The position numbers and the translations under genes are program-made. Source: Verrucomicrobiia bacterium (GTDB lineage: Bacteria > Verrucomicrobiota > Verrucomicrobiia > Limisphaerales > UBA1319). Taken from it: a stretch of 64,000 nt of DNA. Shown here one piece after another: positions 44,169 through 60,396 of this stretch. The stretch is taken from the NCBI GenBank assembly GCA_963664225.1, contig OY760937.1, forward strand, positions 4,448,001-4,512,000, in the 5' to 3' direction. The first letter of the stretch is position 1. Each line of letters starts with the position of its first letter. The notes beneath the pieces were generated by a model. That model had not been told where the DNA came from and did no database searches. It worked only from the letters and a program-made list of their open reading frames with translations.

Positions 44169-47100
44169 TTATCCGCCGCGTCGGTTCTCCTCAAACATTT
44201 CGACTGGCATCGGATGCTCCAGAAGCCAAACCATCTGGATCGGTCGCTCGGATTGGTGGCTGACGTAATCGGATGGTCCGAGGTATGTGAACGGAGCCGT
44301 GACCCCATTCACTTTCTTCAGTGATCGAACGAAGAAAAGCATCGTGTAGCCGCGTTCCTTGTGGTGGACAAGATTCTGACCAGTCTCGCTTGCGAGGCTC
44401 GTTTGCGATTGGCTTTCCCAATGCAACAACTCGCGACTGATAGGGTAGTCTTGATACATTGTGCTTGGAGAGAACTCTTTCTCCGTTTTCTGAAAGGTAA
44501 CCAATGAGACGATGGTTTTTATGTTTGGGAAGTGAAGCCAGCCAACGCCCGTGACACCCGCAGTCTCAAAGGTTGCTCCACCAAGCGCTGCTTTAATTTC
44601 ATCACTCCCGTAAGTGGCATGCAGTTCCAGCGGACATGGAAACGGGAGGTCAAGAGGTTTGCTTCCAACACAGGACTCATCGGCTGACCATTCCAACACT
44701 TCTTCAAGATCGCGTAGCACTGATGGATTCCGGGCAGCCCTCTGGAAGGATTCCTCGATATTCGCAATTCCCAACTTATGGCCCGGTTGTCCCCAGAGTC
44801 GATAGTGGGTGAGAACTGCAGAGTCTCCGGCCTCTGCGAGCGCTGCTTCCGGGTTTCCTGCTCTCAGATAAGTGACGACCTTCCGTAATCGAGCGATCTC
44901 GCGTGGTCCGGAAGTCTGCGCTGCGCTGATGAGTGAGTCCTTCAAGCGACCGATATCGGGGTCGGCCGGGATTTCGGTGAGACGGGCGCTAGCTTTCCAC
45001 TGAGACCAAGTCTTTCTGGAGAGGAGCGTTTCAGGTTCGTAGTCGTGAAAACGGACAAAGTTTCCGAATGTCAGTTGCTGCTGAGCTTCACTTTCAAACG
45101 ATTCCAATCGGTCAGGAACTTGATCAGCCAGATTGCGTAGGTTCTCGCGGATATTGGCCAACACATAATCACGTGCTAACCGGTCGAGTTGAATGCTGCA
45201 ACCGGCAGGTAGGTGTGGAAATTCCATTTCCACCTCCCGCAGGATATTGAACCGCCGCTTGCTTAGCAGAGCTTTAAGCTTGCGGTCTATTCGGTATTTG
45301 CGATGCGCCTGTCCAACGAAGTCCAGGACTGTCAGGCAATCCTTCTCGGGTGAATGACGCAGACCGCGGCCTAATTGCTGAAGGAACACAGTCAGACTTT
45401 CCGTGGGCCGAAGAAACAGAACGGTATTGACCTCCGGAACGTCGAGACCCTCGTTGAGCACATCCCGAGTAAAGAGGAAGCGGATCTTGCCGGCGCGAAA
45501 ATCATTCATTAAAGCCGTTCGGTCATCCGTGAGTGTTTCGCCAACCAACACTGCGGAAGTAATCCCACGCTCATTGAACTTTTCGGCCATGAATTCCGCG
45601 TGACGTACGGATACGCAAAATCCAATGCCGCGAACTCGGTCTAAATATGGCTCGTATCGGAGCAAAGAGCTGAGGACAACATCCACGCGCTGGAGAGCGA
45701 CAGCATGTGCGCCTGTGAAAACTTTCTCCAACTCTGCAACATCGTATTTTCCACTCCGCCAGAACTGGTCTCCTGCCAATGAAACGGGATCTGCAACGCC
45801 GAAGTAGTGGAATGGGCATAGGAGCTTTTCTTCCAACGCCTCGGGCAGTCGGATTTCGGCAGCGAAATGATTGTCAAAATCTGCTGCAACACTCGCACCA
45901 TCCATACGTTCTGGAGTTGCCGTTAATCCAAGAAGAATACGTGGATTGAATTGATCAAATATCGCTCGATAACTGGCAGCGGGACCGTGATGCACCTCAT
46001 CCACAATAATGAAGTCGAAAAAATCGGCTCCGACTTGCTCCCACAAGCGCCGAGTTCCGAGCATGTCCACCGAGCAAAATAGATGGTCGAAACGCGTAGC
46101 GACGTGGGGACCGCCCAGCAGTTCACCGAAATCTGGCGTTCGAAGCACCATGCGGAACATTGCGGCTGCTTGTTCCAAAATTTCGCGTCGATGCGCTACA
46201 AACAACAACCGGGCTTGGCGTTGATTGCTCAAATAGAACCGTTTGAAGTCGAATGCCGCGACGACCGTTTTTCCAGTTCCAGTTGCCGCAACGATGAGGT
46301 TCCTCCATCGGTTATGAACGCTGCGTTCAATTGCCAAAGCGTCGAGAATACGTTCCTGAAATGGATGGGGCGTCATGTCCACCAACAACGTGGAAATGAA
46401 GCCATTCTTACGACCCTGCTGAATCGCATCCCTCAGCACCATGGGTTCATCTGGATTGAATGGAATGAACTCGCGGCTGTTCCAGTACGTTTCAAACTCC
46501 GCTTTGAATTTCTCCAGAATGTGGGGCAGATCCTGATTTGTGATTTTCAGATTCCATTCCAACCCACTGGTCATCGCCGCATGTGACATGTTGGCAGAGC
46601 CAATGTATGCAGTCGAGAAACCGCTGTTGCGTTTGAAATGATATGCCTTTGCATGGAGGCGTGTTCGTGTGGTGTCGTAGGAAATGCGAATCGATACATT
46701 TGGAAGACGGGCCAGCCATTCGATAGCTTCTGGATCCGATGCGCCCATGTAGGAAGTCGTGATGATTCGTACAGGGACACCGCGACCAGCAGCTTCCTCA
46801 AACGCTGGCATCAAAAGTCGAAGCCCGGACCATTTAATGAAGGACACGAGCAAATCCACATAGTCCGCCGAGTGCATCTCGCTACCCAATTCATGGACGA
46901 GCTGTGGGTCGGATGGCGAGCCAGTGAACAAACTGCTTTCTGTGAGAGGCGTTTCAGGCCGTGGCAAGGCTCCTTGCGCGTAATGCGGAGGAGTAATTTC
47001 AAGGAGCACAGGTTTGTCAGAGGAAACGAGACGTCTGTTTTGAAGAAAAGCCGACGACGGACTACCTGCAATTCGCTCAATAATGTCATTGCACAGCCGC

Positions 47101-47294
47101 ATCCGTGTGGCTGTATCACTTTCAAGACGCAGAGCCTTCACTAACAGCTTCGATAGAAAAGCGGCATAGCGTGCCGGTTCTTCCTCTGAGTCGAGTTTAC
47201 CAAAAACCGAACGTAACTCCGGGTGTCGATCAAGAATGGATTGTAGATCCTCGTCAAGGAGCGCTTCATAGATGCCTTGGGCAGGGATTGTCAT
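44169..47294 (-). CDS. PLD nuclease-SF2 helicase-DUF3427 protein (SauUSI-like type IV restriction enzyme candidate)
   Basis: LHAKAY...IGSANMS PLD motif; ATGTGKT, DEVHH, GLTATPERMDG, NEGLDVP and QQLGRGLR; C-terminal YQDYPIS..LHWESQS. Confidence 0.88.
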   Translation of the reverse strand: MTIPAQGIYEALLDEDLQSILDRHPELRSVFGKLDSEEEPARYAAFLSKLLVKALRLESDTATRMRLCNDIIERIAGSPSSAFLQNRRLVSSDKPVLLEITPPHYAQGALPRPETPLTESSLFTGSPSDPQLVHELGSEMHSADYVDLLVSFIKWSGLRLLMPAFEEAAGRGVPVRIITTSYMGASDPEAIEWLARLPNVSIRISYDTTRTRLHAKAYHFKRNSGFSTAYIGSANMSHAAMTSGLEWNLKITNQDLPHILEKFKAEFETYWNSREFIPFNPDEPMVLRDAIQQGRKNGFISTLLVDMTPHPFQERILDALAIERSVHNRWRNLIVAATGTGKTVVAAFDFKRFYLSNQRQARLLFVAHRREILEQAAAMFRMVLRTPDFGELLGGPHVATRFDHLFCSVDMLGTRRLWEQVGADFFDFIIVDEVHHGPAASYRAIFDQFNPRILLGLTATPERMDGASVAADFDNHFAAEIRLPEALEEKLLCPFHYFGVADPVSLAGDQFWRSGKYDVAELEKVFTGAHAVALQRVDVVLSSLLRYEPYLDRVRGIGFCVSVRHAEFMAEKFNERGITSAVLVGETLTDDRTALMNDFRAGKIRFLFTRDVLNEGLDVPEVNTVLFLRPTESLTVFLQQLGRGLRHSPEKDCLTVLDFVGQAHRKYRIDRKLKALLSKRRFNILREVEMEFPHLPAGCSIQLDRLARDYVLANIRENLRNLADQVPDRLESFESEAQQQLTFGNFVRFHDYEPETLLSRKTWSQWKASARLTEIPADPDIGRLKDSLISAAQTSGPREIARLRKVVTYLRAGNPEAALAEAGDSAVLTHYRLWGQPGHKLGIANIEESFQRAARNPSVLRDLEEVLEWSADESCVGSKPLDLPFPCPLELHATYGSDEIKAALGGATFETAGVTGVGWLHFPNIKTIVSLVTFQKTEKEFSPSTMYQDYPISRELLHWESQSQTSLASETGQNLVHHKERGYTMLFFVRSLKKVNGVTAPFTYLGPSDYVSHQSERPIQMVWLLEHPMPVEMFEENRRGG

Positions 47295-48028: not shown

Positions 48029-49981
48029 ATGAAAACACCCCATCTGCTGTGCCTGGCCATCGCTGCGGCTGCCGTCAGCGCCTCGGCCACGGAATTTCAT
48101 GTCGCTCCCACAGGCAACGATGCCAGCCGGGGAACCCGGAAAGCTCCCTGGCGCACCATCCAGCACGCCGCCGATCTCGCGCAACCCGGCGATGTCATCA
48201 CCGTGCATGCGGGCGTTTATCGCGAGCGCATCAATCCACCGCGCGGCGGCACGTCCGAGCGCAAGCGCATCGTCTATCAGGCGGCCCCGGGCGAGAAGGT
48301 CGAGATCAAGGGTTCCGAAGTCGTCACGAACTGGACGAAGGTGCAGGAGGATGTCTGGAAGGTGACGCTGCCCAATTCATTTTTTGGAAACTTCAATCCC
48401 TTCAACGACCTGATCCATGGCGACTGGTTTGCGCGCCGTGACCGCGATCATCACACAGGCGCGGTCTATCTGAACGGCGAGTGGTTGATCGAATCGGCGA
48501 CGATGGACGAAGTCCTGAGGCCCCTCGGACCAATCCCGCCCTCGGTGAGCCAGGGAAACGTGGCCGCCATGCCCGATCCACGGCTCTGGTTTGCCAAGGT
48601 GGATGCGAACAACACCACCATCTGGGCGCAGTTCAAGGACGTCGATCCCAACACGCAGTTGACCGAGATCAATGTGCGTCGCACCGTTTTTTATCCCGAT
48701 CAACCCGGCCGGAATTACATCACCGTGCGCGGTTTCATCCTGCGGCAGGCCGCCACACCCTGGGCGCCGCCGACCGCCGAACAGATCGGCTTGATCGGCA
48801 CGCATTGGAGCAGGGGATGGATCATTGAGAACAACGTGGTGAGCCACTCGACGTGCTCAGGCATCTCGCTCGGCAAACACGGCGACGCACATGACAACAC
48901 CTCCGCTGACACCGCTGAGGGATACGTCAAAACCATCGAGCGCGCCCATGCCCATGCCATCGCCTGGACCCCCGTAAACATCGGCCATCACATCGTGCGC
49001 AACAACACCATCTCCCATTGCGAACAGGCCGGCATCGTCGGCAGCCTGGGGGCGATGTTCAGCACCGTCACCGGCAATGACATCTACGACATCCATTATC
49101 GGCGGCTCTTCACCGGCGCGGAAATGGCCGGCATCAAGATTCACGCGGCGATTGACACCCTCATCCAGGGTAACCATATCCATCGCACCTGCCGCGGCCT
49201 CTGGCTCGACTGGATGGCGCAGGGAACGCGCGTCACGGGCAATCTCTTCCATGACAACGCCTATGAAGACCTCTTCGTGGAAGTCAACCACGGGCCGTTC
49301 ATGGTGGATAACAACCTGTTCCTTTCCGGCACGAGCCTTACGGATATGTCCGAGGGCGGCGCCTACGTGCACAACCTGTTCACCGGCGTGATTTCGAGCA
49401 CCCAGGAGGCCGAGCGGCAAACGCCTTACCACCCCGCGCATCAGACTTCCATTGCGGGAATGAGCGACCTCAAGGGCGGCGACAATCGTTTCTATAACAA
49501 CCTTTTTGTCGGCAATGGCAACGGCCCTGGCGAAGTGGTCAAGGGTGACAAGCGCCACTACCGCGTCAATGGCTATGGACTCTGGGTCTATGACACCCGG
49601 GCCTACCCGCTCGAGACCGGCGGCAACGTCTCCCTCCATCACGCCCAGGCCTATGCCAGGGAAACCACCCCGCTCGTGCTCATGGATTACGATCCGCAGG
49701 TCAAACTGGTGGAGCAGGGCGATCAGTTTATTTTGAACCTGACCTCCTGCCCGGAGTTAAAGCAGGCCCGCACGACCGTTGTCACCACCGCATTGCTCGG
49801 CAAAGCCCGGATACCCTACCTGCCTTACGAGAGCGTGACCGGTTCCCGCTTGAAAATCAGCACCGACTACCTCGGCCGGAAACGCAGCACAACGCATCCC
49901 ACCCCCGGCCCCTTCGAGAATCCCGGAACGGAGGCGTTTGCCCCGGTGGTCTGGGGGCCACACGGAGTGGTTGCGCCGTAA
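48029..49981 (+). CDS. Beta-helix glycoside hydrolase, GH120 beta-xylosidase-like
   Basis: EFHVAPTGND...PWRTIQHAA, GVYRE, NSFFGNFNP, GAVYLNG, WAPPTAEQIG, AGIKIH, LWLDWMAQG and FVEVNHGP; signal peptide. Confidence 0.85.
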   Translation: MKTPHLLCLAIAAAAVSASATEFHVAPTGNDASRGTRKAPWRTIQHAADLAQPGDVITVHAGVYRERINPPRGGTSERKRIVYQAAPGEKVEIKGSEVVTNWTKVQEDVWKVTLPNSFFGNFNPFNDLIHGDWFARRDRDHHTGAVYLNGEWLIESATMDEVLRPLGPIPPSVSQGNVAAMPDPRLWFAKVDANNTTIWAQFKDVDPNTQLTEINVRRTVFYPDQPGRNYITVRGFILRQAATPWAPPTAEQIGLIGTHWSRGWIIENNVVSHSTCSGISLGKHGDAHDNTSADTAEGYVKTIERAHAHAIAWTPVNIGHHIVRNNTISHCEQAGIVGSLGAMFSTVTGNDIYDIHYRRLFTGAEMAGIKIHAAIDTLIQGNHIHRTCRGLWLDWMAQGTRVTGNLFHDNAYEDLFVEVNHGPFMVDNNLFLSGTSLTDMSEGGAYVHNLFTGVISSTQEAERQTPYHPAHQTSIAGMSDLKGGDNRFYNNLFVGNGNGPGEVVKGDKRHYRVNGYGLWVYDTRAYPLETGGNVSLHHAQAYARETTPLVLMDYDPQVKLVEQGDQFILNLTSCPELKQARTTVVTTALLGKARIPYLPYESVTGSRLKISTDYLGRKRSTTHPTPGPFENPGTEAFAPVVWGPHGVVAP

Positions 49982-50539
49982 GGTCGTTTGAGAATTCCGA
50001 ATAGGTTCTGCGGTGAGGGGATGTCGTGGCCTGGACTTGCGCTAGCCGGCCCACTCCAGCCCGTGCTGTCGCATTACGGCCCTACGGGTCTTGGAATCGT
50101 TGTTCCCTTTGAATTAATCCCGGCAACTCACGCTTCAGGATATCAATGGGATCAAGGCGGATCGCATTATGCTGCCGGGGTTTCCGTGCTTTGCAAGCGC
50201 CGTGCTGAAGATTCGTGGTAAACGGTGGCGTCTCATTCATCCCTTCCAGTCGCGTGTGGAGAGATGTCGGGATGCAACAATGTTTCAGGGCAAAAAAAAG
50301 TCCCCCAGCCCATCGAAGTTCTGAATGGGCGGGTGCGCCTTCTTGGAACCATGCATTTTCAGGGTTGGCGACCGTTCATCCTTTTGAGCAAAGTTTTTCA
50401 TTGCGGACAGGCGTTGTCGAAGGGAAAAGCGTCAGATTAAAGGATCAGAGCAATAACTCGCAAGTCGATGCTGCGAAGGGAGGAAACGTGGGAAGACCTC
50501 CGATGGTTTGACAGGCAACCCGCCAAGACCGGCTTTCAT

Positions 50540-50860
50540 TTAAAATCGCCACTTTTAACAACACGTTTGCATTGCCAATACAATAAGAAAACATAATGAC
50601 AATATATGCCATACTATTGGCACGATACGTGTAGCGCATCAGAAGGTGAAAAAAGTAGTCTGGCGCGCATGTATATAAATCGCATAAAAGCCTGCTATTA
50701 CTGGCCAATAGCAGCATCATGGCAGCATGACGAGAATGATGATACATACAAAATAAAAGTTTTAAAAAGCAATATAAAATAAAAAATTAAAAAACAAATA
50801 TGTCCCGTTTTGAAGCGTAATATTCCAACAATAAGACACTATAATGTTACAGTTACCATT
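50540..50860 (+). promoter_or_regulatory. AT-rich upstream region of the hydrogenase operon
   Basis: Sharp AT enrichment with A tracts in a GC-rich genome; TATAAT near 50840. Confidence 0.45.
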
Positions 50861-50988
50861 AATCGGTGTCTGGCTGAAGGCTGTCTTTGCTTATGCGTGA
50901 TATTACAAAGTCTGCTTCCAGATGACTCATTTCCGGCTCCTGTGATTGAACAACCGATAACCACCCATAACTCTTCAACACCACTGTT

Positions 50989-51960
50989 ATGAATATAACC
51001 CGACGAAGTTTTCTAAGTTACTGCACCCTGTCCGCAGCGGCGCTTGGCCTGGATGCGCACAAATTGCGTTTCCTTTCAGAGGCCCTGGCCAATCCCAGCG
51101 CGCCAACGGTCATCTGGCTCATTGGGGCCTCCTGCAACGGCTGCTCAGTGTCGTTGCTCAATCGTTTTTCCGACAAGGCCGGCGAGCCTGCGGATGTGGC
51201 GGGAGTGCTGACCGGCGCGATCAACCTGGTTTATCATCCAGTCATCATGGCGGCGGCGGGTGAAACTGCCGTGTCGGCTCTCAAGCAGGCCTATAACCGG
51301 GGCAACTATGTTCTGGTGGTCGAAGGGGCGATACCCACGGCTTTCGGCGGCTACACTTGCGGAGTCTGGAACTACAACGGCCAGGACGTCACAATGCAGC
51401 AGGCGGTCCAGGAATTGACCGCCCGGGCTCTGGCCACCGTATGCGTGGGCACCTGCGCGAGTTTCGGCGGCATTCCGGCCTCAGGTTCGAATCCCACGGC
51501 CGCAATGGGCGTGCATCAATTTACGGGTCGGCCCACCATCAATCTCTCAGGGTGTCCGGTCAATCCCGATTGGATCGTCTGGGCGGTGGTGCAATTGTTG
51601 ACGGGCACCCCGGTCACGCTGGATGCGGATGGCCGTCCCTCCGCGCTTTACACCACGAGCTTCAGCGGGGCCGCCGAAGCTGCCATCATCCATGACAAGT
51701 GTCCCCGCAATCCGGCCAACACCGGCACGCTTGAGGCGGTCAATTTCGGGGAAAACGGCCATTGTTTGAAGGCCCTGGGCTGCCGTGGACCGGCCACCAA
51801 GTCGCGCTGTCAGGCGGCCTGGAATGGAATCGGAGGCCATGTGGCCCCGCAACTGCACCCGGGCCACTGGTGCATTGAGGCCAACGCCCCCTGCCAGGGC
51901 TGCGTTGAAAAGACCTTCCCGGGATCCCAACCGTTCCACGAGCCCTACATCCCGGCCTAA
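50989..51960 (+). CDS. [NiFe]-hydrogenase small subunit, Tat-exported, group 1a-like
   Basis: TRRSFL Tat motif; SCNGC, GTCASFGG, GCP, HDKCPR, CLKALGCRGP and WCIEANAPCQGC; no C-terminal transmembrane helix. Confidence 0.93.
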   Translation: MNITRRSFLSYCTLSAAALGLDAHKLRFLSEALANPSAPTVIWLIGASCNGCSVSLLNRFSDKAGEPADVAGVLTGAINLVYHPVIMAAAGETAVSALKQAYNRGNYVLVVEGAIPTAFGGYTCGVWNYNGQDVTMQQAVQELTARALATVCVGTCASFGGIPASGSNPTAAMGVHQFTGRPTINLSGCPVNPDWIVWAVVQLLTGTPVTLDADGRPSALYTTSFSGAAEAAIIHDKCPRNPANTGTLEAVNFGENGHCLKALGCRGPATKSRCQAAWNGIGGHVAPQLHPGHWCIEANAPCQGCVEKTFPGSQPFHEPYIPA

Positions 51961-52023
51961 ACACCGCCATCGCAAATCAATTCATCCAACACCAACACAT
52001 TTAACCGCAATACAGGAATTACC

Positions 52024-53487
52024 ATGCCAGTCATTACTGCCGCAATAGACCCGATCACCCGCATCGAAGGGCACATGAAGGTCGAGGTCAAAATCGACAC
52101 CATAAACGGCGTTCAACAAGTCGTTGACGCCAGCGCCATCGGAACGCTGTTTCGCGGTTTCGAGAAACTGCTCGAGGGCCGTGCGCCCCGGGACGCCACA
52201 ATCATCACCTCCCGCATCTGTGGAGTGTGCCCCACTTCACACGCCATGGCTTCCGCGCTGGCGCTGGATAGCGCCTATGGTGTCAATGGGGACACACCCA
52301 GCAGAACGGCCTCCCGTTTGCTGAGAAATCTGGTGCATGGCGCATGCTTCCTGGAGTCGCACATCCTGCACTTCTATCTTCTATCGTTGCCGGACTATAT
52401 CTCCGGGGTGCCGATGGCGCCCTGGCTGCCCGGTTGGGAAGTGGGAAAACGATTTGATACCGCGACGGTGAATCGGTTCACAGGCAATTTCCTGGCCGCG
52501 ATCACCGCGCGTCGAAACGCCCATGAAATGGGCGCCATCTATGGCGGCAAACTGCCGCATTCCCCCGCCTATATCGGTGGTGGCGGTTTTACCTCCATTG
52601 CCTCGAACGCCAGCACCACCGCCTTTCAGGCCTATCTGACCGACCTGCTGAACTTCATTCAAACCAAATACATTCCGGATGCGGAGTTGCTGGCCAATCT
52701 CTACAGCGATTATTTTCTGCTGGGCAGGGGCTATGGAAGCCTCATGGCTTATGGCGTGTTCGAACAGGACAACTCCACCAGCCCACAACTGCTCCTGAAA
52801 CGGGGCCGTGTGGTGAACGGTACCTCCACAGTCCAGGCGGTCGATGTCTCACAAATCACGGAGCAACTTCGCTATTCCTGGTATGCCAGTGCCGATAATC
52901 AGAATCCCGCCGTCGAAGACACGGTGGCCCAATACCCGAAAGCCGAGGCCTATTCCTGGCTCAAGGCGCCCCGGTATGGTGGCGCGCCCTATGAAGTGGG
53001 TCCGCTGGCCCGCATGACCGTCAATGGCGATTACACCAACGGCGTTTCCGTGATGGACCGGCATCTGGCCCGGGCTCGTGAGGCGCTCAAGATCGCCCAG
53101 GCCATGCAGGCGTGGCTCAACGCGCTGACATCGGGCCAAAGCGCGTACACGGATGCACCCAAACCGGCGAGTGCCACCGCCATGGGTTTAACCGAGGCGC
53201 CGCGCGGGGCCTTGGGCCACTGGCTCCAGGTATCCAACAGCACGATCTCCAAATATCAGATCGTCACCCCAACCTGCTGGAATGTCTCGCCCAAGGACAG
53301 CTCCAACCAGCATGGGCCTCTGGAGCAGGCACTCATCGGCCTGCCCGTGGTCAACATCGACAAGCCCATCGAGGTATTGCGCGTGGTGCACTCATTCGAC
53401 CCGTGTCTGGACTGTGCGACGCACGTAACCCGGGCGGAGCCGGGCGCCAGGGTGTTCGTTCCAGGTGGATTGCCGGTGAAAAACTGA
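52024..53487 (+). CDS. [NiFe]-hydrogenase large subunit
   Basis: DPITRIEGH, RGFE, L1 RICGVCPTSH, YSWLKAPRY, EAPRGALGHW and L2 DPCLDCATH followed by a 20-aa cleavable tail. Confidence 0.96.
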   Translation: MPVITAAIDPITRIEGHMKVEVKIDTINGVQQVVDASAIGTLFRGFEKLLEGRAPRDATIITSRICGVCPTSHAMASALALDSAYGVNGDTPSRTASRLLRNLVHGACFLESHILHFYLLSLPDYISGVPMAPWLPGWEVGKRFDTATVNRFTGNFLAAITARRNAHEMGAIYGGKLPHSPAYIGGGGFTSIASNASTTAFQAYLTDLLNFIQTKYIPDAELLANLYSDYFLLGRGYGSLMAYGVFEQDNSTSPQLLLKRGRVVNGTSTVQAVDVSQITEQLRYSWYASADNQNPAVEDTVAQYPKAEAYSWLKAPRYGGAPYEVGPLARMTVNGDYTNGVSVMDRHLARAREALKIAQAMQAWLNALTSGQSAYTDAPKPASATAMGLTEAPRGALGHWLQVSNSTISKYQIVTPTCWNVSPKDSSNQHGPLEQALIGLPVVNIDKPIEVLRVVHSFDPCLDCATHVTRAEPGARVFVPGGLPVKN

Positions 53488-53508
53488 TTAATCACCAGGA
53501 ATCACCCT

Positions 53509-54051
53509 ATGAAGCAAGAAATGGCGAATCAGTTCATGCCTCAACACTCCCGAAAGGGGGAGCCGTCTCGTTTCCTGATTGCCGGCGTGGGAAACGAATT
53601 GCTTTGCGACGATGGCGTGGGAATCCATGCGATCCGGGAATTGCAGCGTGAACCCATTCCCGGAGTGACGATGGTGGATTTGGGCACGGCCATCCTCCAC
53701 GGTCTCGGCTTCCTGGAAGCGGCCGACCGGGTGCTGGTCATCGACGCAGCCAAAGGGGGCCAGGCTCCGGGCACCATTTACCTCTTTGAAGCGGGCGTGA
53801 ATACTCAGGCCCAACCCATGACCTCTGTCCATTCAATGGGCCTGCGCGAAGCCGCCGGCTTGTTGATGGCGGGTCAGGCTCCCCCGATGACCGTGCTGGG
53901 CGTTGAACCGGAATCCTTCAAATACTCCATGTCCCTGTCGGATCCGGTGCAGGCGGCCGTGGCACGCGTGGTTTCCCTGGCCCGGGAGACCATCACGGCA
54001 TGGCGACAGGCCGAACGAAATGAAGAAATGGCTGTTCCAGCCGAAGTATAA
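53509..54051 (+). CDS. Hydrogenase maturation protease (HyaD/HybD family)
   Basis: GVGNELLCDDGVG, DLGT, IDAA..G..PGTIY, SVHSMGL and LGVEP. Confidence 0.92.
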   Translation: MKQEMANQFMPQHSRKGEPSRFLIAGVGNELLCDDGVGIHAIRELQREPIPGVTMVDLGTAILHGLGFLEAADRVLVIDAAKGGQAPGTIYLFEAGVNTQAQPMTSVHSMGLREAAGLLMAGQAPPMTVLGVEPESFKYSMSLSDPVQAAVARVVSLARETITAWRQAERNEEMAVPAEV

Positions 54052-54095
54052 AACGAACTAAAAACCACTCCAATCCCTTTAACCCAAGACCTACT

Positions 54096-57000
54096 GTGAA
54101 AAATATTCTGAAACTGATGGGCGCCATATTACTCGGCGCAATACTGACCCAGGGGGTCAGTGCGGCAACGACCGATGGCACTGCCACCCTCAATGTGACG
54201 CTGACGGATCCTGCGGGCAATTACAACCGGCGTGTCGATGCGTTTTGGATCACCGATGGCACGGGCCGATTCATTGTGACCGTGCGCAAAGACGCGGCGT
54301 CTGAGCAGGCCTACCTCTACCAATGGAACACCGCCCGCGGGACATCCACGGTGGTGGATGGCTACAGCGGCGCCACAATCACCACCTGGACGCCGATGTC
54401 CGTGCCTTGGAATGGCCGGGACGCCAACAATGTGCTGGTGCCCGATGGCAACTACCGGTTTTACGCTGAGTTTACCGATCATAACGGACAAGGTTGGTGG
54501 ACCACCAACGGGCTAGCCTTCACCAAAGGCGCCAGCGCCTACACCACCAACTATCCCGCGCTGCAATACCTGACCGCCATGTCCGTCACTTATGCCCCGG
54601 TGGCCGTGGTGCATGACATTGCGGTGACCAGCATGACTCCCAGCACGGCTGTGGCCAACACCACCGTGGCAGTACAGGTTGGAGTGACCAATCGAACCGC
54701 CAATGCGGAAACCTTTAGCGTGATCCTGAGCAACGCCACCAGCGGGGTTGTCGTCGGCACACAGACGGTCACCTCTCTGGCTGGCAACGCGGCCTCCAGC
54801 GTAACCTTCCAATGGAATACCGCCGGTTTGCAGGGCAATTACGCCTTGCGGGCAACGGCGGGTCCTGTGACTGGCGAAACCAGCACTGCGGATAATAGCT
54901 ACACCAACACCGTTGCCGTGCAACCCCTGGTCCACGATATCGCCGTCACCAGCATGGCTCCCAATACGGCCCAGGCGAACACCACTGTTTCGGTTCAAGT
55001 TGGCGTAACGAATAAGACCGCCAATGCGGAGTCTTTTAGCGTGACACTGAGCAACGTCACCACCGCAACCCTCATCGGCACACAGACCGTCGGCGCGTTG
55101 GCGGGAAATGCAACCACAAGCGCCGCATTCGCATGGAATACCGCTGGTTTGCAGGGTAATTACGTTCTGCGTGCGGTGGCCGGGCCCGTGACTGGCGAAA
55201 CGATTACTGCGAACAACAGTTTCACGAACACTGTCGCTGTGCAGTCTGTGGCTCATGATATCGCGGTGACCAGCCTATCGCCCAGCCTGGCGCTTCCAGG
55301 CACAAACGTCACCATCACTGTAGGGGTCACCAACCTCACAATAAACACCGAAACCTTCTCGGTAGTGCTGAGCAATCTCACCTCCGCCTCAAGGATCGGC
55401 ACGCAGCAGATTACCGCTCTGGCCGGCAACAGGACTACCAGTGCAACCTTCCAGTGGAGCACCACCAACCTGTCTGGCAATTATGTCCTGCAGGCCAGCG
55501 CCGGTCCAGTGACCGGGGAAACCGCCACGACTGACAATACGCGCACCAGTACGGTGGCTGTAAGGAGCTTGATTCATGATGTGGCCATCGCCGCCATAAA
55601 CGTCCCGGCCCTGGTTTCACCCAACAGCACGGCCACTATTTCGGTGCTGGCAACCAATGCCGGGGAAACCGCCGAGTCGTTTGGGGTGCAATTATTTGAC
55701 GACACCGACGCACGCGCCATCGGCGGGACCTACCAGGTCAGCAATCTGGCAGTGGCAGCCACCCTGAACGTGCCTTTCACCTGGAGCACCACCAACAGTT
55801 CGCTCGGCGTCCACACCCTGAGGGCCGTGGCCGTCGCGGTCACTGGTGAAACCGCTCTTGCCAACAATACCAAATCCGCAGCCGTGACCGTGCAGACGGT
55901 CAACCATGATGTGGCGATTGCCACAATTCTTGCGCCAACGTTCGTGGCACCCAATGGGACCGCCACAATTTCCGTGGTGGCCACAAACCTCGGCGCGGTG
56001 GCCGAATCCTTTGGTGTTCAACTGCTCGACGACACCGATGCGCGCACCATTGGCGCCACTTACCAAGTCACCAATCTGGCCGTCGCTGCGGCAGTCAATA
56101 TACCCTTCACCTGGAAGGCCACCAACAGTTCCCTCGGCTATCACATGTTGCGCGCCGTGGCCAATCCCGTGTCTGGCGAAACGACCCTGGCCAATAACAC
56201 CAATACCGTCAGGGTTGCGGTCGCGACAGGCTTGGGCACCAACACCTACATCGCCAAAGCCAGTCCCTGGCGCTATAATGACCAGGGACTGGACCTGACA
56301 CAGACCCCGTGGCGCCTACCCGATTATTATGACGCCACCTGGAGCCTGGGTGCCGCGCCATTGGGTTACAGCGCGAACAGCAGCTTAACCAATCTCACCA
56401 CCCGGCTGAGCTGGGGACCGGTCGCGACAAACAAATACCCCACCTATTATCTGCGGCGGGAATTCTATGCGGACGTTTTGCCCGCTGCGATGACCCTTAA
56501 CATGCGATGCGTGGACGGAGCCATCCTCTACCTCAACGGTGTTGAGCTGACCCGTCAAAATATCGCCTGGTCCATGGGCTATTCGGACCTTGCGGATGCG
56601 CCGGTGACGGGAACAAACCGTTATACTTACGTCTCGACGAGCCTGGTTCCCACCAATGTGGTTCTGGGCCGAAACGTCCTGGCGGTGGAATTGCATCGGG
56701 CGGACCTGACGGGTTCAGGCCTGGCGTTTGACCTCGAAATGATTGGAACCGCGCCTCAAGCCACTGCCAAACACCTGGTGGACACGATTAGCATGACCAC
56801 CTCCGGGAGCGCGATTCTGGGCGACCAACTGCCGGTATCGGTCACCGTGACCAACCGTGGAAATGTCACAGAGTCCGTGCAAGTGTTTCTCAAGAACAAT
56901 ACGACAGGCCAGATTATTGGTTCTCAAACCATTACCAGCCTGGTTCCGGGAGGCACCACTTCGATCAATTTCGACTGGGGCACTCTGGGGGCCAATAATG

Positions 57001-59243
57001 GCGCAAACAGCCTGACGGCCTACACGGTCGTGGGTGGGGTCACCAACATGGCTGGTTCCTATACCAACACCGCACTCATCAGCGGTACGGGTTTTGTCAC
57101 CAATCCCGTCAACACAACTGCAACCATCGGGGGCCGGTGTTTCGCGATGGCAACCGCTTCCGGCCACTTGCTCGTTGGTTCCGGAGCGACACTCGAAATA
57201 TGGGATGTCAGCCATCCATCCTCACCCGTCCGGCAAGGGGCCGTGCGTTTGCCAGGATTGATTCAGGATATTGCCGCCACCGAGTCTTACGCTTACGTCG
57301 CCTGCGGCTCGGCCGGCGTCCAGTTCGTGGATCTGCATTCGTCCTCCCAGCCCATTCATCGACGCACGCTCAATACCGCCGGCAATGCCTACTCAGTGGC
57401 GGTGAGCGGAAGCTATTTGTATGTGGCTGACGGCAATGCGGGCCTGCGCATCGTCAACATTTCGAGTCCCTCCAGTCCCTCGATGGCTGGAGTGTATTAC
57501 ACCTCGGGACCGGCCCGGGCCGTTGCCGTTTCCAACAGCCGTGCCTACCTCCTCGACCAGCAGCAGGGTTTGTTGATTCTTGATGTGTCGAGCCCAAGAA
57601 CTCCGTCGCTCCTGGGTGTTTACCCCAACTTCGATGCGGGCGTGGCCCTGGCGGTTTCCAGTTCGTATGCATACCTGCTGGATGCCAATAATCACTTCGC
57701 CATCGTCAACGTCTCCACTCCGGCGAGTCCGACATTAAGCGGTTCGCTCATTTTGACGAACATGATCGGTCAGAGCATTGCCGTGAATGGTTCACGAGCT
57801 TATGTTTCGGCCGGAGTCAGCGGTTTGGTGACCATCAATGTCTCCACACCCTCGGCTCCCACGATCGTTTCAACCACTGCCATGCCGGGTGAAGCGGGGG
57901 AAATAGCGCGTTCCAGCTCGACCCTCTATGTGGCTGACGGCTTTGCCGGATTCCAGGTGTTCAATGTCTCTTCATCGTCGGCACCATCGCTCCAGGCGGA
58001 TTACCCGACTGCGTTGCGGGCAACCGATGTGGCCATCACCAACAATCTGGCGTATGTGGCTGCGGGTGAAAGCGGTTTGCGAATCTTCTCGCTGACCAAT
58101 GCCGGTTCGCCAGCGCTCCTCGGCCGGTTCACCGGAGCGGCCAACGCCCGCGCGGTGGCCGTTTCAGGTTCCCGCGCTTATGTGGGTGACGGGCCCAATG
58201 GTTTGAAAATTGTCAATGTCGCCAACCCGGCGGCCCCCACGTTATTGGGCAGCTATACGAACTCGAAGCTGGGCAGCATCCGTGATGTCGGAGTATCTGG
58301 TTCGCTGGTGGTGGTGAGCGATGGACGAACCATGCTCCTGCTGGACGCTTCCACCTCATCGAGGCCAACCCTGGTGGGCACGTATAACACACCGGCCTTC
58401 GCGTTCGCGATGACCGTAAACAACAACCGCGCCTATGTGGCTTGCGGCAAGGCCGGCCTGGTGATTCTCAATGTTTCTCGCAGTTCATTCGCCACCCTGG
58501 GCAGCCTGGTCATGCCTTCGCTGGTAAACGACGTTTCCGTTGCCGGCACCTCAGCCTATCTTTCAGGACCCGTCGGAGGCTGGTGGACCGTCGATGTTTC
58601 GACTCCGTCGGCGCCCCATCTGGTGCAGAGCGCCACCGGTCAGGGAGCCATCATGGGTCTGGCCGCTCTGGGCACCAACGTCGCAGTCCTGACCACGACC
58701 AATTATCTGGTTACAATGAACGCTTCGGTGCCATTGAGGCCGGTATCCATGAAATCCTTCGGACCGTTGGTTGGCGCGATCCGGCTGGCCGTCAGCTCGA
58801 ACTTCGTGGCCTCTGCAGAAGATGAAGCAGGCTTGGGCCTGTTTGCCGTGGCTTTTGGCGGCGGATCGAGCCGGAGCCTGGAACTGGATTCGTTCGTGGC
58901 AAAGAGTGTGGGTGCTGAAAGCGGCCCAGTGCTGCTCGGCGCATCACTGGCTGTAGCTAATCCTGCGGCGGGCACTTTAACGCCTGCCGCGCAGGTTTCG
59001 CCAGCCTCGACTGCCACGGATGCCGCATCGACGAATGCGAACTTCACACTGCACTGGCAGAGCGTGGCTGGTCAGACTTACACCGTCTATCGTTCGACAG
59101 ATCTCAAGGGTGGATTCACCCCATTGCAGACTCACATACCGGCGACGCCGCCAACGAACGTCTTTATCGATCCTGTCGCGCATGATGCGGCCTTCTATAT
59201 GATCGTGATCGAGGAAACGGGTGCCGCGCCAGCGAATCAATAA
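54096..59243 (+). CDS. Giant secreted protein: DUF2271-like flavinylation domain, CARDB-like repeats, LVIVD repeats, C-terminal domain
   Basis: GTG start and signal peptide; AFWITD..GRFIVTV...DGYSGAT...WNGRD..PDGNY; five HD(I/V)A repeats of 107-110 aa; many AYVA....GL.I.NVS.P..P LVIVD units; W.SVAGQTYTVYRSTDL...FY tail. Confidence 0.85.
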   Translation: MKNILKLMGAILLGAILTQGVSAATTDGTATLNVTLTDPAGNYNRRVDAFWITDGTGRFIVTVRKDAASEQAYLYQWNTARGTSTVVDGYSGATITTWTPMSVPWNGRDANNVLVPDGNYRFYAEFTDHNGQGWWTTNGLAFTKGASAYTTNYPALQYLTAMSVTYAPVAVVHDIAVTSMTPSTAVANTTVAVQVGVTNRTANAETFSVILSNATSGVVVGTQTVTSLAGNAASSVTFQWNTAGLQGNYALRATAGPVTGETSTADNSYTNTVAVQPLVHDIAVTSMAPNTAQANTTVSVQVGVTNKTANAESFSVTLSNVTTATLIGTQTVGALAGNATTSAAFAWNTAGLQGNYVLRAVAGPVTGETITANNSFTNTVAVQSVAHDIAVTSLSPSLALPGTNVTITVGVTNLTINTETFSVVLSNLTSASRIGTQQITALAGNRTTSATFQWSTTNLSGNYVLQASAGPVTGETATTDNTRTSTVAVRSLIHDVAIAAINVPALVSPNSTATISVLATNAGETAESFGVQLFDDTDARAIGGTYQVSNLAVAATLNVPFTWSTTNSSLGVHTLRAVAVAVTGETALANNTKSAAVTVQTVNHDVAIATILAPTFVAPNGTATISVVATNLGAVAESFGVQLLDDTDARTIGATYQVTNLAVAAAVNIPFTWKATNSSLGYHMLRAVANPVSGETTLANNTNTVRVAVATGLGTNTYIAKASPWRYNDQGLDLTQTPWRLPDYYDATWSLGAAPLGYSANSSLTNLTTRLSWGPVATNKYPTYYLRREFYADVLPAAMTLNMRCVDGAILYLNGVELTRQNIAWSMGYSDLADAPVTGTNRYTYVSTSLVPTNVVLGRNVLAVELHRADLTGSGLAFDLEMIGTAPQATAKHLVDTISMTTSGSAILGDQLPVSVTVTNRGNVTESVQVFLKNNTTGQIIGSQTITSLVPGGTTSINFDWGTLGANNGANSLTAYTVVGGVTNMAGSYTNTALISGTGFVTNPVNTTATIGGRCFAMATASGHLLVGSGATLEIWDVSHPSSPVRQGAVRLPGLIQDIAATESYAYVACGSAGVQFVDLHSSSQPIHRRTLNTAGNAYSVAVSGSYLYVADGNAGLRIVNISSPSSPSMAGVYYTSGPARAVAVSNSRAYLLDQQQGLLILDVSSPRTPSLLGVYPNFDAGVALAVSSSYAYLLDANNHFAIVNVSTPASPTLSGSLILTNMIGQSIAVNGSRAYVSAGVSGLVTINVSTPSAPTIVSTTAMPGEAGEIARSSSTLYVADGFAGFQVFNVSSSSAPSLQADYPTALRATDVAITNNLAYVAAGESGLRIFSLTNAGSPALLGRFTGAANARAVAVSGSRAYVGDGPNGLKIVNVANPAAPTLLGSYTNSKLGSIRDVGVSGSLVVVSDGRTMLLLDASTSSRPTLVGTYNTPAFAFAMTVNNNRAYVACGKAGLVILNVSRSSFATLGSLVMPSLVNDVSVAGTSAYLSGPVGGWWTVDVSTPSAPHLVQSATGQGAIMGLAALGTNVAVLTTTNYLVTMNASVPLRPVSMKSFGPLVGAIRLAVSSNFVASAEDEAGLGLFAVAFGGGSSRSLELDSFVAKSVGAESGPVLLGASLAVANPAAGTLTPAAQVSPASTATDAASTNANFTLHWQSVAGQTYTVYRSTDLKGGFTPLQTHIPATPPTNVFIDPVAHDAAFYMIVIEETGAAPANQ

Positions 59244-59280
59244 AACTTGCGACGCACGAATAACACGTTGAACCTGTAGC

Positions 59281-60396
59281 ATGCGAGCTTCAGGTCTCAA
59301 CATGAACCGGTGTACACGGAGCGCGGGACGCATGACCCGCAGCTCCGTTCAATTCATCCTCCTGCTTGGATGGGTGTCAATTCTGGCACCCATCCTTTCC
59401 CTCCCGGTACGTGGTGCCGATTTTCCGCTCATTTCCTGGCAGGGCCAGACCATGGGGTCCACGTACACCGTGAAAATCGTGGACGCCCAACTTGCCGAAC
59501 CGACAGTGGAGGCCTTAAAGCTTGAAATCGAGCGGTGCCTGAAGGAAGTCAATCGTCAGGTGTCGCATTACCAACCGGAGAGTGAATTATCACGGTTCAA
59601 CCGTTCACCTGCGAACACCCCTTTTAAAGCCTCCCCGGGTTTCTTCCGCGTCCTCCAGCATAGCCTCGAATTGAACCGTCAATCGCAAGGCGCCTTTGAT
59701 CCCACGCTGGGACCACTCATCGACCTGTGGGGATTTGGCGCGAAGACTAACAACAAGGCAGTGCCGACCGACGCGCAAATCTCGGAGGCGAAGAAACTCT
59801 ACGGTTGCCAGCACCTCTCTCTGACCGCCAACGGGGAAATCCTCAAAGACATTCCGGAACTGCGCCTAAACCTCAGTTCCGCCGGCAAAGGTTTTGGCAC
59901 CGATGAAATGGCGCGCGTTCTTCGAGCACATGGCTTGACGAACATTTACGTCTCCATCAGTGGCGATGTCTTCACCCAGGGACACAATGCCCAAGGCAAA
60001 AAATGGCAGGTGGGCATTTCAGCTCCAATGCCCGATTGGAGTCCCGGAGATCCACTGGTCACGGTGCTCTCTGTATCGGGACAGGCCGTTTCCACATCGG
60101 GCGATTATCAGAAATATTTGATCGACGCCCAGGGACGGCGTCTTGGCCATATCTTCGATCCGAAAACCGGCTGGCCTGTTCAGCATAATCTGGCGGGCGT
60201 CTCGGTGGTGGCCGGGGATTGCATGACTTCCAGTTCCCTGGCCACGACACTCTTTGTGCTTGGGCCGGATGAAGGACTTCGATTCATTGAATCCCGGACC
60301 AATGCCGCCGCACTATTCGTGGTCCAGGATGCCGATCATAAATTCCAATCGATCCCCAGTTCTCGGTTTAAGGTCATGACCGGATATCAGCCGTGA
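59281..60396 (+). CDS. apbE: FAD:protein FMN transferase
   Basis: TMGS, SELSRFN, GAFDPTLGPL..LWGF, KG..TD, WQVGI, STSGDY and HIFDPKTG; start may be at 59332. Confidence 0.92.
   Translation: MRASGLNMNRCTRSAGRMTRSSVQFILLLGWVSILAPILSLPVRGADFPLISWQGQTMGSTYTVKIVDAQLAEPTVEALKLEIERCLKEVNRQVSHYQPESELSRFNRSPANTPFKASPGFFRVLQHSLELNRQSQGAFDPTLGPLIDLWGFGAKTNNKAVPTDAQISEAKKLYGCQHLSLTANGEILKDIPELRLNLSSAGKGFGTDEMARVLRAHGLTNIYVSISGDVFTQGHNAQGKKWQVGISAPMPDWSPGDPLVTVLSVSGQAVSTSGDYQKYLIDAQGRRLGHIFDPKTGWPVQHNLAGVSVVAGDCMTSSSLATTLFVLGPDEGLRFIESRTNAAALFVVQDADHKFQSIPSSRFKVMTGYQP

Follow-up and report, generated by a model that had tools for sequence, protein, structure and literature searches.

A conserved Verrucomicrobiota operon that joins a group 1a-like hydrogenase to ApbE and a giant protein with a predicted flavinylation domain

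A 64,000-nucleotide stretch of the genome of a Verrucomicrobiia bacterium (contig OY760937.1, positions 4,448,001 to 4,512,000; the window in what follows) carries, at 50989-60396, an operon of five genes encoding the two subunits of a [NiFe]-hydrogenase, a hydrogenase maturation protease, a giant secreted protein with a domain predicted to carry flavin mononucleotide (FMN), and ApbE, the enzyme that would attach it. The operon is real and conserved, and it is apparently undescribed, as a first-pass annotation of this DNA had suspected: we found no paper on a hydrogenase with a giant DUF2271 protein and ApbE, nor, among the matches listed, any publication joining the three families, most subscription journals lying outside the search, and a literature search for DUF2271 with hydrogenase returned only a match on iron transport in Alteromonas. 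Its parts are of known kinds, and the exchange of a flavin for a cytochrome and the work of hydrogenases outside the cell each have precedent. The reading that we tentatively favor, at slightly less than an even chance, is that the operon encodes a cell-surface module that oxidizes H2 and passes the electrons through FMN to external acceptors.

The genes lie on the forward strand of a source genome assembled as a single 5.78-Mb contig (96% complete), in the order small subunit (50989-51960, 323 residues), large subunit (52024-53487, 487 residues), protease (53509-54051, 180 residues), giant protein (54096-59243, 1715 residues, with a GTG start and a Sec-type signal peptide read by eye) and ApbE (59281-60396, 371 residues). 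They are separated by gaps of 63, 21, 44, and 37 bp, the last becoming 58 or 88 bp if ApbE starts at 59302 or 59332 rather than at 59281, as its start codon is uncertain. Upstream is an AT-rich region (50500-50988, forward strand, 489 bp) of 38% GC, as against 59% in the operon genes, that is probably the promoter or regulatory region of the operon. Co-orientation, short gaps, AT-rich upstream region, and the identities of the subunits, protease and ApbE had all been proposed in the first-pass annotation, and each is borne out by the open reading frame (ORF) coordinates, base composition, or Pfam and NCBIfam matches. Its statement that the cluster lacks cytochrome b, HybA/HybB, and c-type cytochrome genes also stands, there being no gene with a CxxCH motif in the cluster.

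The linkage, which the earlier reader had left to a genome search and whose confinement to this genome would have refuted the proposal, is found well beyond one genome. With duplicates removed, there are 23 related loci in 22 genomes besides the source genome, and the giant gene is present in 22/22 of those that are informative, the remaining locus ending inside the large subunit. The giant gene follows the protease directly or, in L025, which has no protease, the large subunit. The carriers are Verrucomicrobiae, Kiritimatiellia-type, and Lentisphaerae genomes, the nearest hydrogenase relatives are Verrucomicrobia records, and the linkage is kept down to 60% identity of the large subunit and 38% of the giant protein. 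These loci derive from a scan of species genomes (the best 80 of 92 loci, 14 of these at 65-81% identity), to which a 400-genome sample of the phylum added more; among the matches listed, no further neighbor recurs across the clade. Of the large subunits, 22 were alignable, that of the source among them, and they form one clade (support 100/100); those with a frameshift (L028 and four sister loci) were kept out of the trees and the large-subunit alignment, L028 being retained in the linkage count. The distribution of the operon is patchy, as it occurs in just one (G028) of 60 relatives and a same-genus genome that is 93% complete had no match to it.

The association is reciprocal. In the 400 genomes a profile of the N-terminal (head) domain of the giant protein matched 25 places in 21 genomes, of which 21 places were fetched (the other four are in frames of 172-208 residues), and a hydrogenase was adjacent to all 11 matches of the giant type and to none of the 10 of other types. 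A large-subunit profile matched 15 places in 13 of the same genomes: the ten scoring above 800 bits all have the giant gene, at the same loci, and the five at 604-686 bits are without it. Among metagenome loci (the best 80 of 589), seven have the DPCLDC motif typical of the clade's large subunits. A giant protein or its head is present in three of them and a DUF2271 protein of another kind in one (L179); two more are cut off within ~700 bp, and the last has no partner in view.

The head comprises 143 residues (residues 26-168, 54171-54599). It contains, as had been noted before, the sequence DGYSGAT (residues 88-94, 54357-54377), which fits the flavinylation motif D-x-x-[S/T]-G-A-[S/T] (PMC12052999; the papers cited here were accessible in part, and statements on their content refer to the accessible text) and makes Thr94 the predicted FMN carrier. 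The score of the head against DUF2271 (PF10029) is 18.3 bits, under the cut-off of 27.3, and a search of its own genome with the family gave no match; however, orthologous heads pass the cut-off in 4/5 genomes, at 29-36 bits, leading us to assign the domain to DUF2271. Of the earlier proposal that this is a DUF2271 substrate of ApbE, then, the motif and the neighboring apbE hold and the family membership is reached through orthologs. The structure model is a confident beta-sandwich (predicted local distance difference test, pLDDT, of 85) with a poorly ordered motif loop, and Foldseek gave no match to this model at E <= 0.001. The head profile found 2364 representatives at E <= 0.001; of the 30 that were scanned, many match DUF2271 and four have a type IX secretion tail at their end. 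Asp88 and Thr94 do not vary among the 24 operon domains, 18 of which keep the full motif. A DUF2271 protein has been shown to be flavinylated at the motif threonine (Meheust et al., 2021, PMC8238504). ApbE itself (PF02424, 276 bits) has a signal peptide and no lipobox that we could see, and its gene is adjacent in 12/18 loci with room for it. This cognate enzyme would place FMN on Thr94. A second SGAT, at residue 1029 in the propeller region, was dismissed as a chance match, since it has no Asp and its Ser/Thr is found in just 6/20 orthologs.

The hydrogenase, as judged from its sequence, is group 1a-like, exported by the twin-arginine translocation (Tat) pathway and without an anchor. Its small subunit (PF01058 and PF14720) has as best NCBIfam match the NiFeSe small subunit (209 bits, under the cut-off of 470) and contains ligand sets for three Fe-S clusters, kept in 24 alignment rows, of which four Cys residues presumably lie at the medial cluster site. 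A Tat RRxF motif is present in all 15 small-subunit N-termini inspected, with C-terminal tails of 16-18 residues; in the source protein 17 hydrophilic residues follow the last Cys, in agreement with the anchorless Tat substrate described before. The large subunit (PF00374) has the motifs RICGVC and the clade-typical DPCLDCATH and a cleavable C-terminal extension; RICGVC, DPCLDC, RIEGH, and APRG are invariant across 22 rows, and we take the first two to be the metal-binding CxxC motifs and the last two to provide the catalytic Glu and Arg. Among solved structures the nearest are those of periplasmic [NiFeSe] enzymes (E 6e-110), an identity that was ruled out as the C-terminal motif contains no selenocysteine: the frame is open and the TGT codon in DPCLDC specifies Cys. 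The 1a-type and [NiFeSe] matches are the best in PDB and NCBIfam, yet they are under the NCBIfam cut-offs, and our own trees were built without named reference enzymes. The protease (PF01750) is above the cut-off of TIGR00072 (HycI). Sequons for N-glycosylation are not enriched in the subunits (2 against 2.2 expected, and 5 against 2.6).

Group 1a enzymes are defined as periplasmic, with electron input to anaerobic respiration (PMC5037454, Table 1). The operon enzyme shares with the [NiFe] and [NiFeSe] members (PDB 5JSU, 1CC1; HydDB class 1a) the soluble, Tat-exported, anchorless dimer and the four-Cys medial site, and differs from them in its Cys in place of selenocysteine, the Asp within the C-terminal CxxC, sub-cut-off NCBIfam scores, and a partner that is a stalk protein with a flavinylation motif instead of cytochrome c3 or b. 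That Asp (DPCLDC, 53407-53415) does not vary within the clade or among its closest relatives, while other loci have Ala, Ser, or Gly at the position; it adjoins the NiFe site, which it may tune.

Cytochromes or quinones are regarded as the electron acceptors of group 1 hydrogenases, and the first-pass annotation had suggested that the FMN protein replaces such a partner. The gene position after the protease speaks to this. In L179, which a quick tree places as the sister of the clade (Shimodaira-Hasegawa-like approximate likelihood ratio test, SH-aLRT, 85), it is filled by a DUF2271 head (37.7 bits, DGFTGAT) on an unrelated body, so that it is the redox domain rather than the body that tracks the hydrogenase. 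On the next branch, the protease of L159 is followed by a secreted monohaem cytochrome with PKD repeats. Across 44 loci of a Desulfobacterota-rich sister clade, several of them truncated or frameshifted, the small subunit has one or two CxxCH motifs at its end in 13 and a beta-rich tail in ~20; three of these tails were confirmed as ASH or Big_6 immunoglobulin (Ig) domains. Neighbors there include monohaem proteins with either PKD or MopE repeats as well as 8-10-haem cytochromes, one of the latter sharing its terminal Ig domains with small-subunit tails. The pattern is of a single redox cofactor carried by an Ig stalk, this being haem in certain lineages and flavin in the Verrucomicrobiota clade.

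In this Desulfobacterota-rich clade of group 1a-like enzymes (L033-L077, L082, and L083) dockerin-like repeats and poly-Asp tails occur on small subunits too, besides the haem-c and Ig/ASH ends, secreted cytochromes on PKD or Ig stalks are often adjacent, and the hydrogenases are possibly at the cell surface. Other proteins occur beside further related hydrogenases. In L161 (7390-9654), L162 (10226-12478), and L200 (4874-6541) a secreted FGE-sulfatase-like domain on a cadherin/Ig stalk is encoded between a group 1a-like large subunit and the protease, with hyp genes adjoining. Large RCC1-repeat S-layer proteins are encoded directly upstream of group 1a-like hydrogenases of Geosporobacter-type clostridia (L030, 657-3779; L031, 4386-8984; L075, 3908-8983); with neither haem nor flavinylation motif, they were left out as partners. 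The large ORFs that follow the protease in L010, L011, and L040 proved to be GTPase or shadow frames and were likewise set aside.

Replacement of the cytochrome is further supported by four operon genomes (G124, G313, G361, and G130, 94-97% complete) out of 20, in which cytochrome c assembly was undetected. These four gave no match for PF01578, PF01292, PF03916, or PF16357, the families searched for cytochrome c assembly, hydrogenase cytochrome b, NrfD, and PepSY-like proteins. PF16357 was absent from 5/5 genomes tested, and a PepSY-like protein is in none of the loci. RnfD/NqrB was undetected in 13/20 operon genomes, and G313 matched neither RnfD/NqrB nor FMN_bind. The genomes scanned are incomplete, and absence from them is no proof. 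Conversely, the source genome encodes a Hyb-type hydrogenase along with two group 3 enzymes (classes assigned by eye from gene context), and many multihaem proteins and other c-type cytochromes, two of them tetrahaem proteins, so that the partner there may yet be a cytochrome.

In Desulfovibrio, group 1a/1b enzymes use a cytochrome c3 encoded apart. By analogy, the operon enzyme could be an ordinary soluble periplasmic group 1a hydrogenase with its partner elsewhere, such as a small c-type cytochrome or Rnf, the giant protein being a co-regulated adhesin with some other use for its FMN. The tetrahaem proteins, the Rnf/Nqr matches in 7/20 operon genomes, and the lack of an adjacent partner in some close relatives are in line with this. 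However, no one alternative partner spans the clade (cytochrome c assembly and RnfD/NqrB are both missing from the matches in G313), the giant type never occurs without a hydrogenase in the 400-genome sample, and in L179 the redox head alone is kept when the body changes, leading us to consider an ordinary enzyme quite improbable.

In the giant protein, signal peptide and head are followed by five tandem CARDB (Ig-like) repeats that would form a stalk (54609-56228; starts at residues 173, 280, 387, 494, and 604), a beta-sandwich with an all-beta model and a sixth CARDB match (56229-57104), LVIVD repeats (57105-58865; PF08309, 12 stretches), a linker, and a short terminal domain (59028-59213), all on the forward strand; PF07705 (CARDB) matches six stretches across the whole protein. 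The beta-sandwich has no Pfam match ("jelly-roll/CBM-like" is our own label), and similar domains occur in other large ORFs of the genome. The LVIVD region is modeled as a tandem double beta-propeller (pLDDT 87), for which Foldseek retrieved tandem WD propellers (E 1e-18). Orthologs are 1.4-2.1 thousand residues long and vary in number of stalk repeats, as evidenced by the jelly-roll starting anywhere from residue 420 to 1143. Two related records differ in build: P0001 has three DUF2271 domains plus CARDB and LVIVD, and in P0014 the hydrogenase protease is fused in frame to a DUF2271-CARDB protein, by either a real fusion or read-through.

An adhesin-like build and variable stalk could also suit a stalk that hands the electrons of H2 directly to a partner cell whose surface the propeller recognizes, and the sister clade includes Syntrophobacteraceae and Desulfobulbales records. 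We regard this as very unlikely: a partner could take up H2 itself, making the benefit doubtful, and a single FMN would be no wire along a stalk. None of the tests points specifically to the intercellular transfer that the first-pass annotation had also envisaged.

The short terminal domain is a putative export or sorting tail. With an iterated hidden Markov model (HMM), 112 ORFs of the genome matched it, 103/112 at <=30 residues from the C-terminus. The domain, of ~60 residues with a WxSxxGxxYxV ... FYRV-like sequence read from the alignment (for example L164, 10261-17535, and L165, 318-6659), is on at least 103 large secreted proteins. At the two loci examined, tail-bearing genes come after PilM-N-O-P-secretin operons, and secretins are present in 20/20 operon genomes tested; the domain may represent an undescribed Verrucomicrobiota secretion signal. 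A nine-haem cytochrome of the source genome (G000:C1:2475140-2477659) has an end that resembles the domain by eye, outside the HMM matches.

It is general to the hydrogenase family that Hyp machinery and a protease mature the large subunit and that the dimer exits by Tat, and we suppose that the Hyp proteins and the operon protease would do so here. The giant protein would enter the periplasm via Sec, receive FMN on Thr94 from the co-encoded ApbE, and be guided to the cell surface by its C-terminal tail, by way of a secretin-type channel. There the Ig stalk would keep the FMN domain off the cell and the double propeller would attach to or scaffold on surfaces. The hydrogenase, with no tail of its own, would have to be exported also, perhaps riding on the giant protein. 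H2 from cytoplasmic fermentative hydrogenases would diffuse out and be oxidized at the surface, the electrons passing from the Fe-S chain to FMN and on to Fe(III) minerals, humic quinones, or similar acceptors, and the payoff would be that H2 stays low locally and NADH is more easily disposed of in fermentation. Because H2 would cross the envelope by diffusion, a porin-cytochrome wire would not be needed, which would explain why no membrane partner is conserved. In G124, G313, and G130 the operon large subunit is the only [NiFe] one found, beside 2-4 [FeFe]-hydrogenase matches, although [FeFe] enzymes are widespread in Kiritimatiellia in any case (78%, 10.64898/2026.10.06.756941).

Several observations weigh against oxidation of H2 at the cell surface. 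The C-terminal tail is on neither hydrogenase subunit, and the surface location of the enzyme is the weakest step of the proposal; moreover, we found no paper on the tail, and its role as an export signal is our own reading. The giant-bearing loci form a single clade and hence reflect one long-kept evolutionary event, not independent cases. The motif is non-canonical (TSAT, SSAT, AGST) in 6/24 domains, five of the six beside ApbE, and ApbE is not adjacent in 6/18 loci, which lie in five genomes that all have it elsewhere. The close relatives L158, L160, and L010/L011 have no redox partner in view, cytochrome c assembly is present in 16/20 operon genomes, and 10/20, including the source, gave no [FeFe] match, so that in the source genome the H2 would have to come from the group 3 enzymes. 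A low Lys+Glu content was considered as a sign of an outside location, the small subunit being the lowest among 50 Tat-motif ORFs of the source genome, and dropped after within-operon controls: across operons the contents of the protease (0.064) and ApbE (0.075) are similarly low to those of the subunits (0.055 and 0.070). Complex prediction for the two subunits with the DUF2271 domain scored 0.00 against a mark of 0.32 and was used neither way.

Stalked DUF2271 proteins also exist without a hydrogenase, beside a DUF5777 barrel, a PepSY-like protein, and ApbE (L135, L136), from which it follows that the domain has other uses. Such loci, the tail-less hydrogenase, the many multihaem cytochromes of the source genome, the definition of group 1a as periplasmic (PMC5037454), and the tie of DUF2271 to PepSY-like iron-reduction clusters (PMC8238504) all favor a periplasmic hydrogenase that reaches the surface FMN protein, or a periplasmic pool of it, by a conduit encoded elsewhere, the pair working as a reductase driven by H2, for example in iron assimilation, which has been proposed for PepSY-DUF2271 clusters. 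Several findings speak against such an arrangement, which we hold to be unlikely: the conserved neighbors of the loci include no barrel, cytochrome, or membrane protein, no iron-uptake gene recurs beside the operon (as read by eye), homologs of the L135 barrel and PepSY protein are absent from the source genome by phmmer, and PF16357 and cytochrome c assembly are missing from the genomes named above. In L135 (8124-14837) and L136 (5912-16973) the gene order is ApbE, a ferredoxin/FAD/NAD/PepSY fusion, a small DUF2271 protein, the DUF5777 beta-barrel, and a cadherin-stalked DUF2271 protein, which looks like a complete flavin-based trans-envelope conduit.

The direction of electron flow was considered as well. 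The potential of the H+/H2 couple is -414 mV, rising towards those of flavins at very low H2 pressure (Nernst), and [NiFeSe] enzymes are good H2 producers. The operon enzyme, with a four-Cys medial cluster as in those enzymes, could accordingly run in reverse, FMN taking electrons from FeS, Fe(II) minerals, Fe0, or reduced humics and the enzyme evolving H2 for the cell; the Hyb-type uptake hydrogenase and two group 3 enzymes of the source genome are compatible with this. A precedent is the hydrogenase of microbiologically influenced corrosion (MIC), a Tat-secreted heterodimer with its own protease and no anchor, proposed to make H2 from Fe0 (PMC12667266). However, in G124, G313, and G130 no [NiFe] large subunit other than that of the operon was found with which to recapture H2, the Kiritimatiellia are described as fermenters that dispose of electrons as H2 (10.64898/2026.10.06.756941), and one flavinylated protein was measured at -184 mV (PMC12052999), well above the proton couple, so that H2 oxidation would be favored. 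We therefore give reverse flow only a small chance.

Besides the group 1a enzymes, some other known systems come close to the operon. The DUF2271 substrates of PepSY-like clusters share domain family, motif, and neighboring ApbE with the operon, which has neither PepSY protein nor membrane conduit and places the domain at the head of a 1715-residue exported protein next to a hydrogenase (PMC8238504). In the same paper (section 17) related extracytosolic reductases are linked through either a cytochrome or an FMN domain, the modular swap that we observe in the hydrogenase clade; the enzymes there are fumarate-reductase-like enzymes and an alcohol oxidase on a membrane chain, whereas the operon has a hydrogenase whose link would lead outward. 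The MIC hydrogenase FohAB of corrosive methanogens shares the Tat-secreted dimer, own protease, and lack of an anchor, and is proposed to work outside the cell on solids (PMC6181927, PMC12667266). Compared by description only, it is archaeal, was placed outside the four groups by its discoverers (PMC6181927), has one membrane to cross, and has a core with TatAC, FohE, and a glycosylation tail and no flavoprotein or ApbE; the operon contains no tatA, tatC, or fohE, and its 17-residue small-subunit tail is without a sequon. Porin-multihaem extracellular electron transfer in peat Verrucomicrobiota (10.64898/2026.05.27.727921) shares the phylum, the proposed use of acceptors outside the cell, and H2 as a possible donor; its clusters have haem-porin wires and cytoplasmic group 3c/3d/4e hydrogenases, and the word "flavin" is absent from the accessible text. 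Likewise, "hydrogen" does not occur in the accessible main text of PMC8238504, whose large gene-cluster tables may list such loci unremarked, or in that of its 2024 follow-up (10.1101/2024.03.13.584918), nor "hydrogenase" in that of PMC12052999.

Some ten systems have been linked to ApbE flavinylation, and in the papers searched none of them includes a hydrogenase. If the hydrogenase is on the surface, the operon would represent a new route of extracellular electron transfer, by which fermentation H2 could go to Fe(III) or humic acceptors rather than to methanogens, in abundant uncultured fermenters of anoxic lakes, groundwater, and soils. The data also draw attention to a neglected clade of hydrogenases that may be located at the surface and to a common, undescribed Verrucomicrobiota secretion tail. 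A broader and more doubtful possibility is a wire-free form of extracellular electron transfer in diderm bacteria, in which an entire outer-surface group 1a-like lineage uses H2 as the carrier across the two membranes and an exchangeable stalk cofactor, with the giant protein as hydrogenase carrier. Were this the case, the cofactor would be haem c in Desulfobacterota and others and FMN in Verrucomicrobiota, discharging to minerals, humics, or neighbors, and the giant protein would take the tail-less hydrogenase out by an undescribed C-terminal sorting pathway. The 143-residue domain and ApbE make a small, directly testable construct.

Some further features of the loci were recorded. The upstream region has a sigma-70-like match (10/12) at 50555-50584, by which a promoter is not established, as the region has 9 matches against 5.5 expected; the terminator scan (10 against 12.2 expected) was equally uninformative. 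One 31.8-kb contig among three contig sets matches the stretch without differences and may be source DNA rather than independent. An aldo-keto reductase gene, not conserved in related loci, lies on the same strand 83 bp past ApbE. Upstream of the operon are a minus-strand ORF of 1041 residues (44169-47294), labeled PLD-nuclease/helicase-like by eye, and a secreted GH120-like beta-helix protein (48029-49981), a similar beta-helix gene being near the operon in L020. Lastly, L129 (6670-17424) has two tandem giant DUF2271 paralogs after one hydrogenase, with hyp genes alongside and, 9 kb beyond, another group 1a-like hydrogenase.

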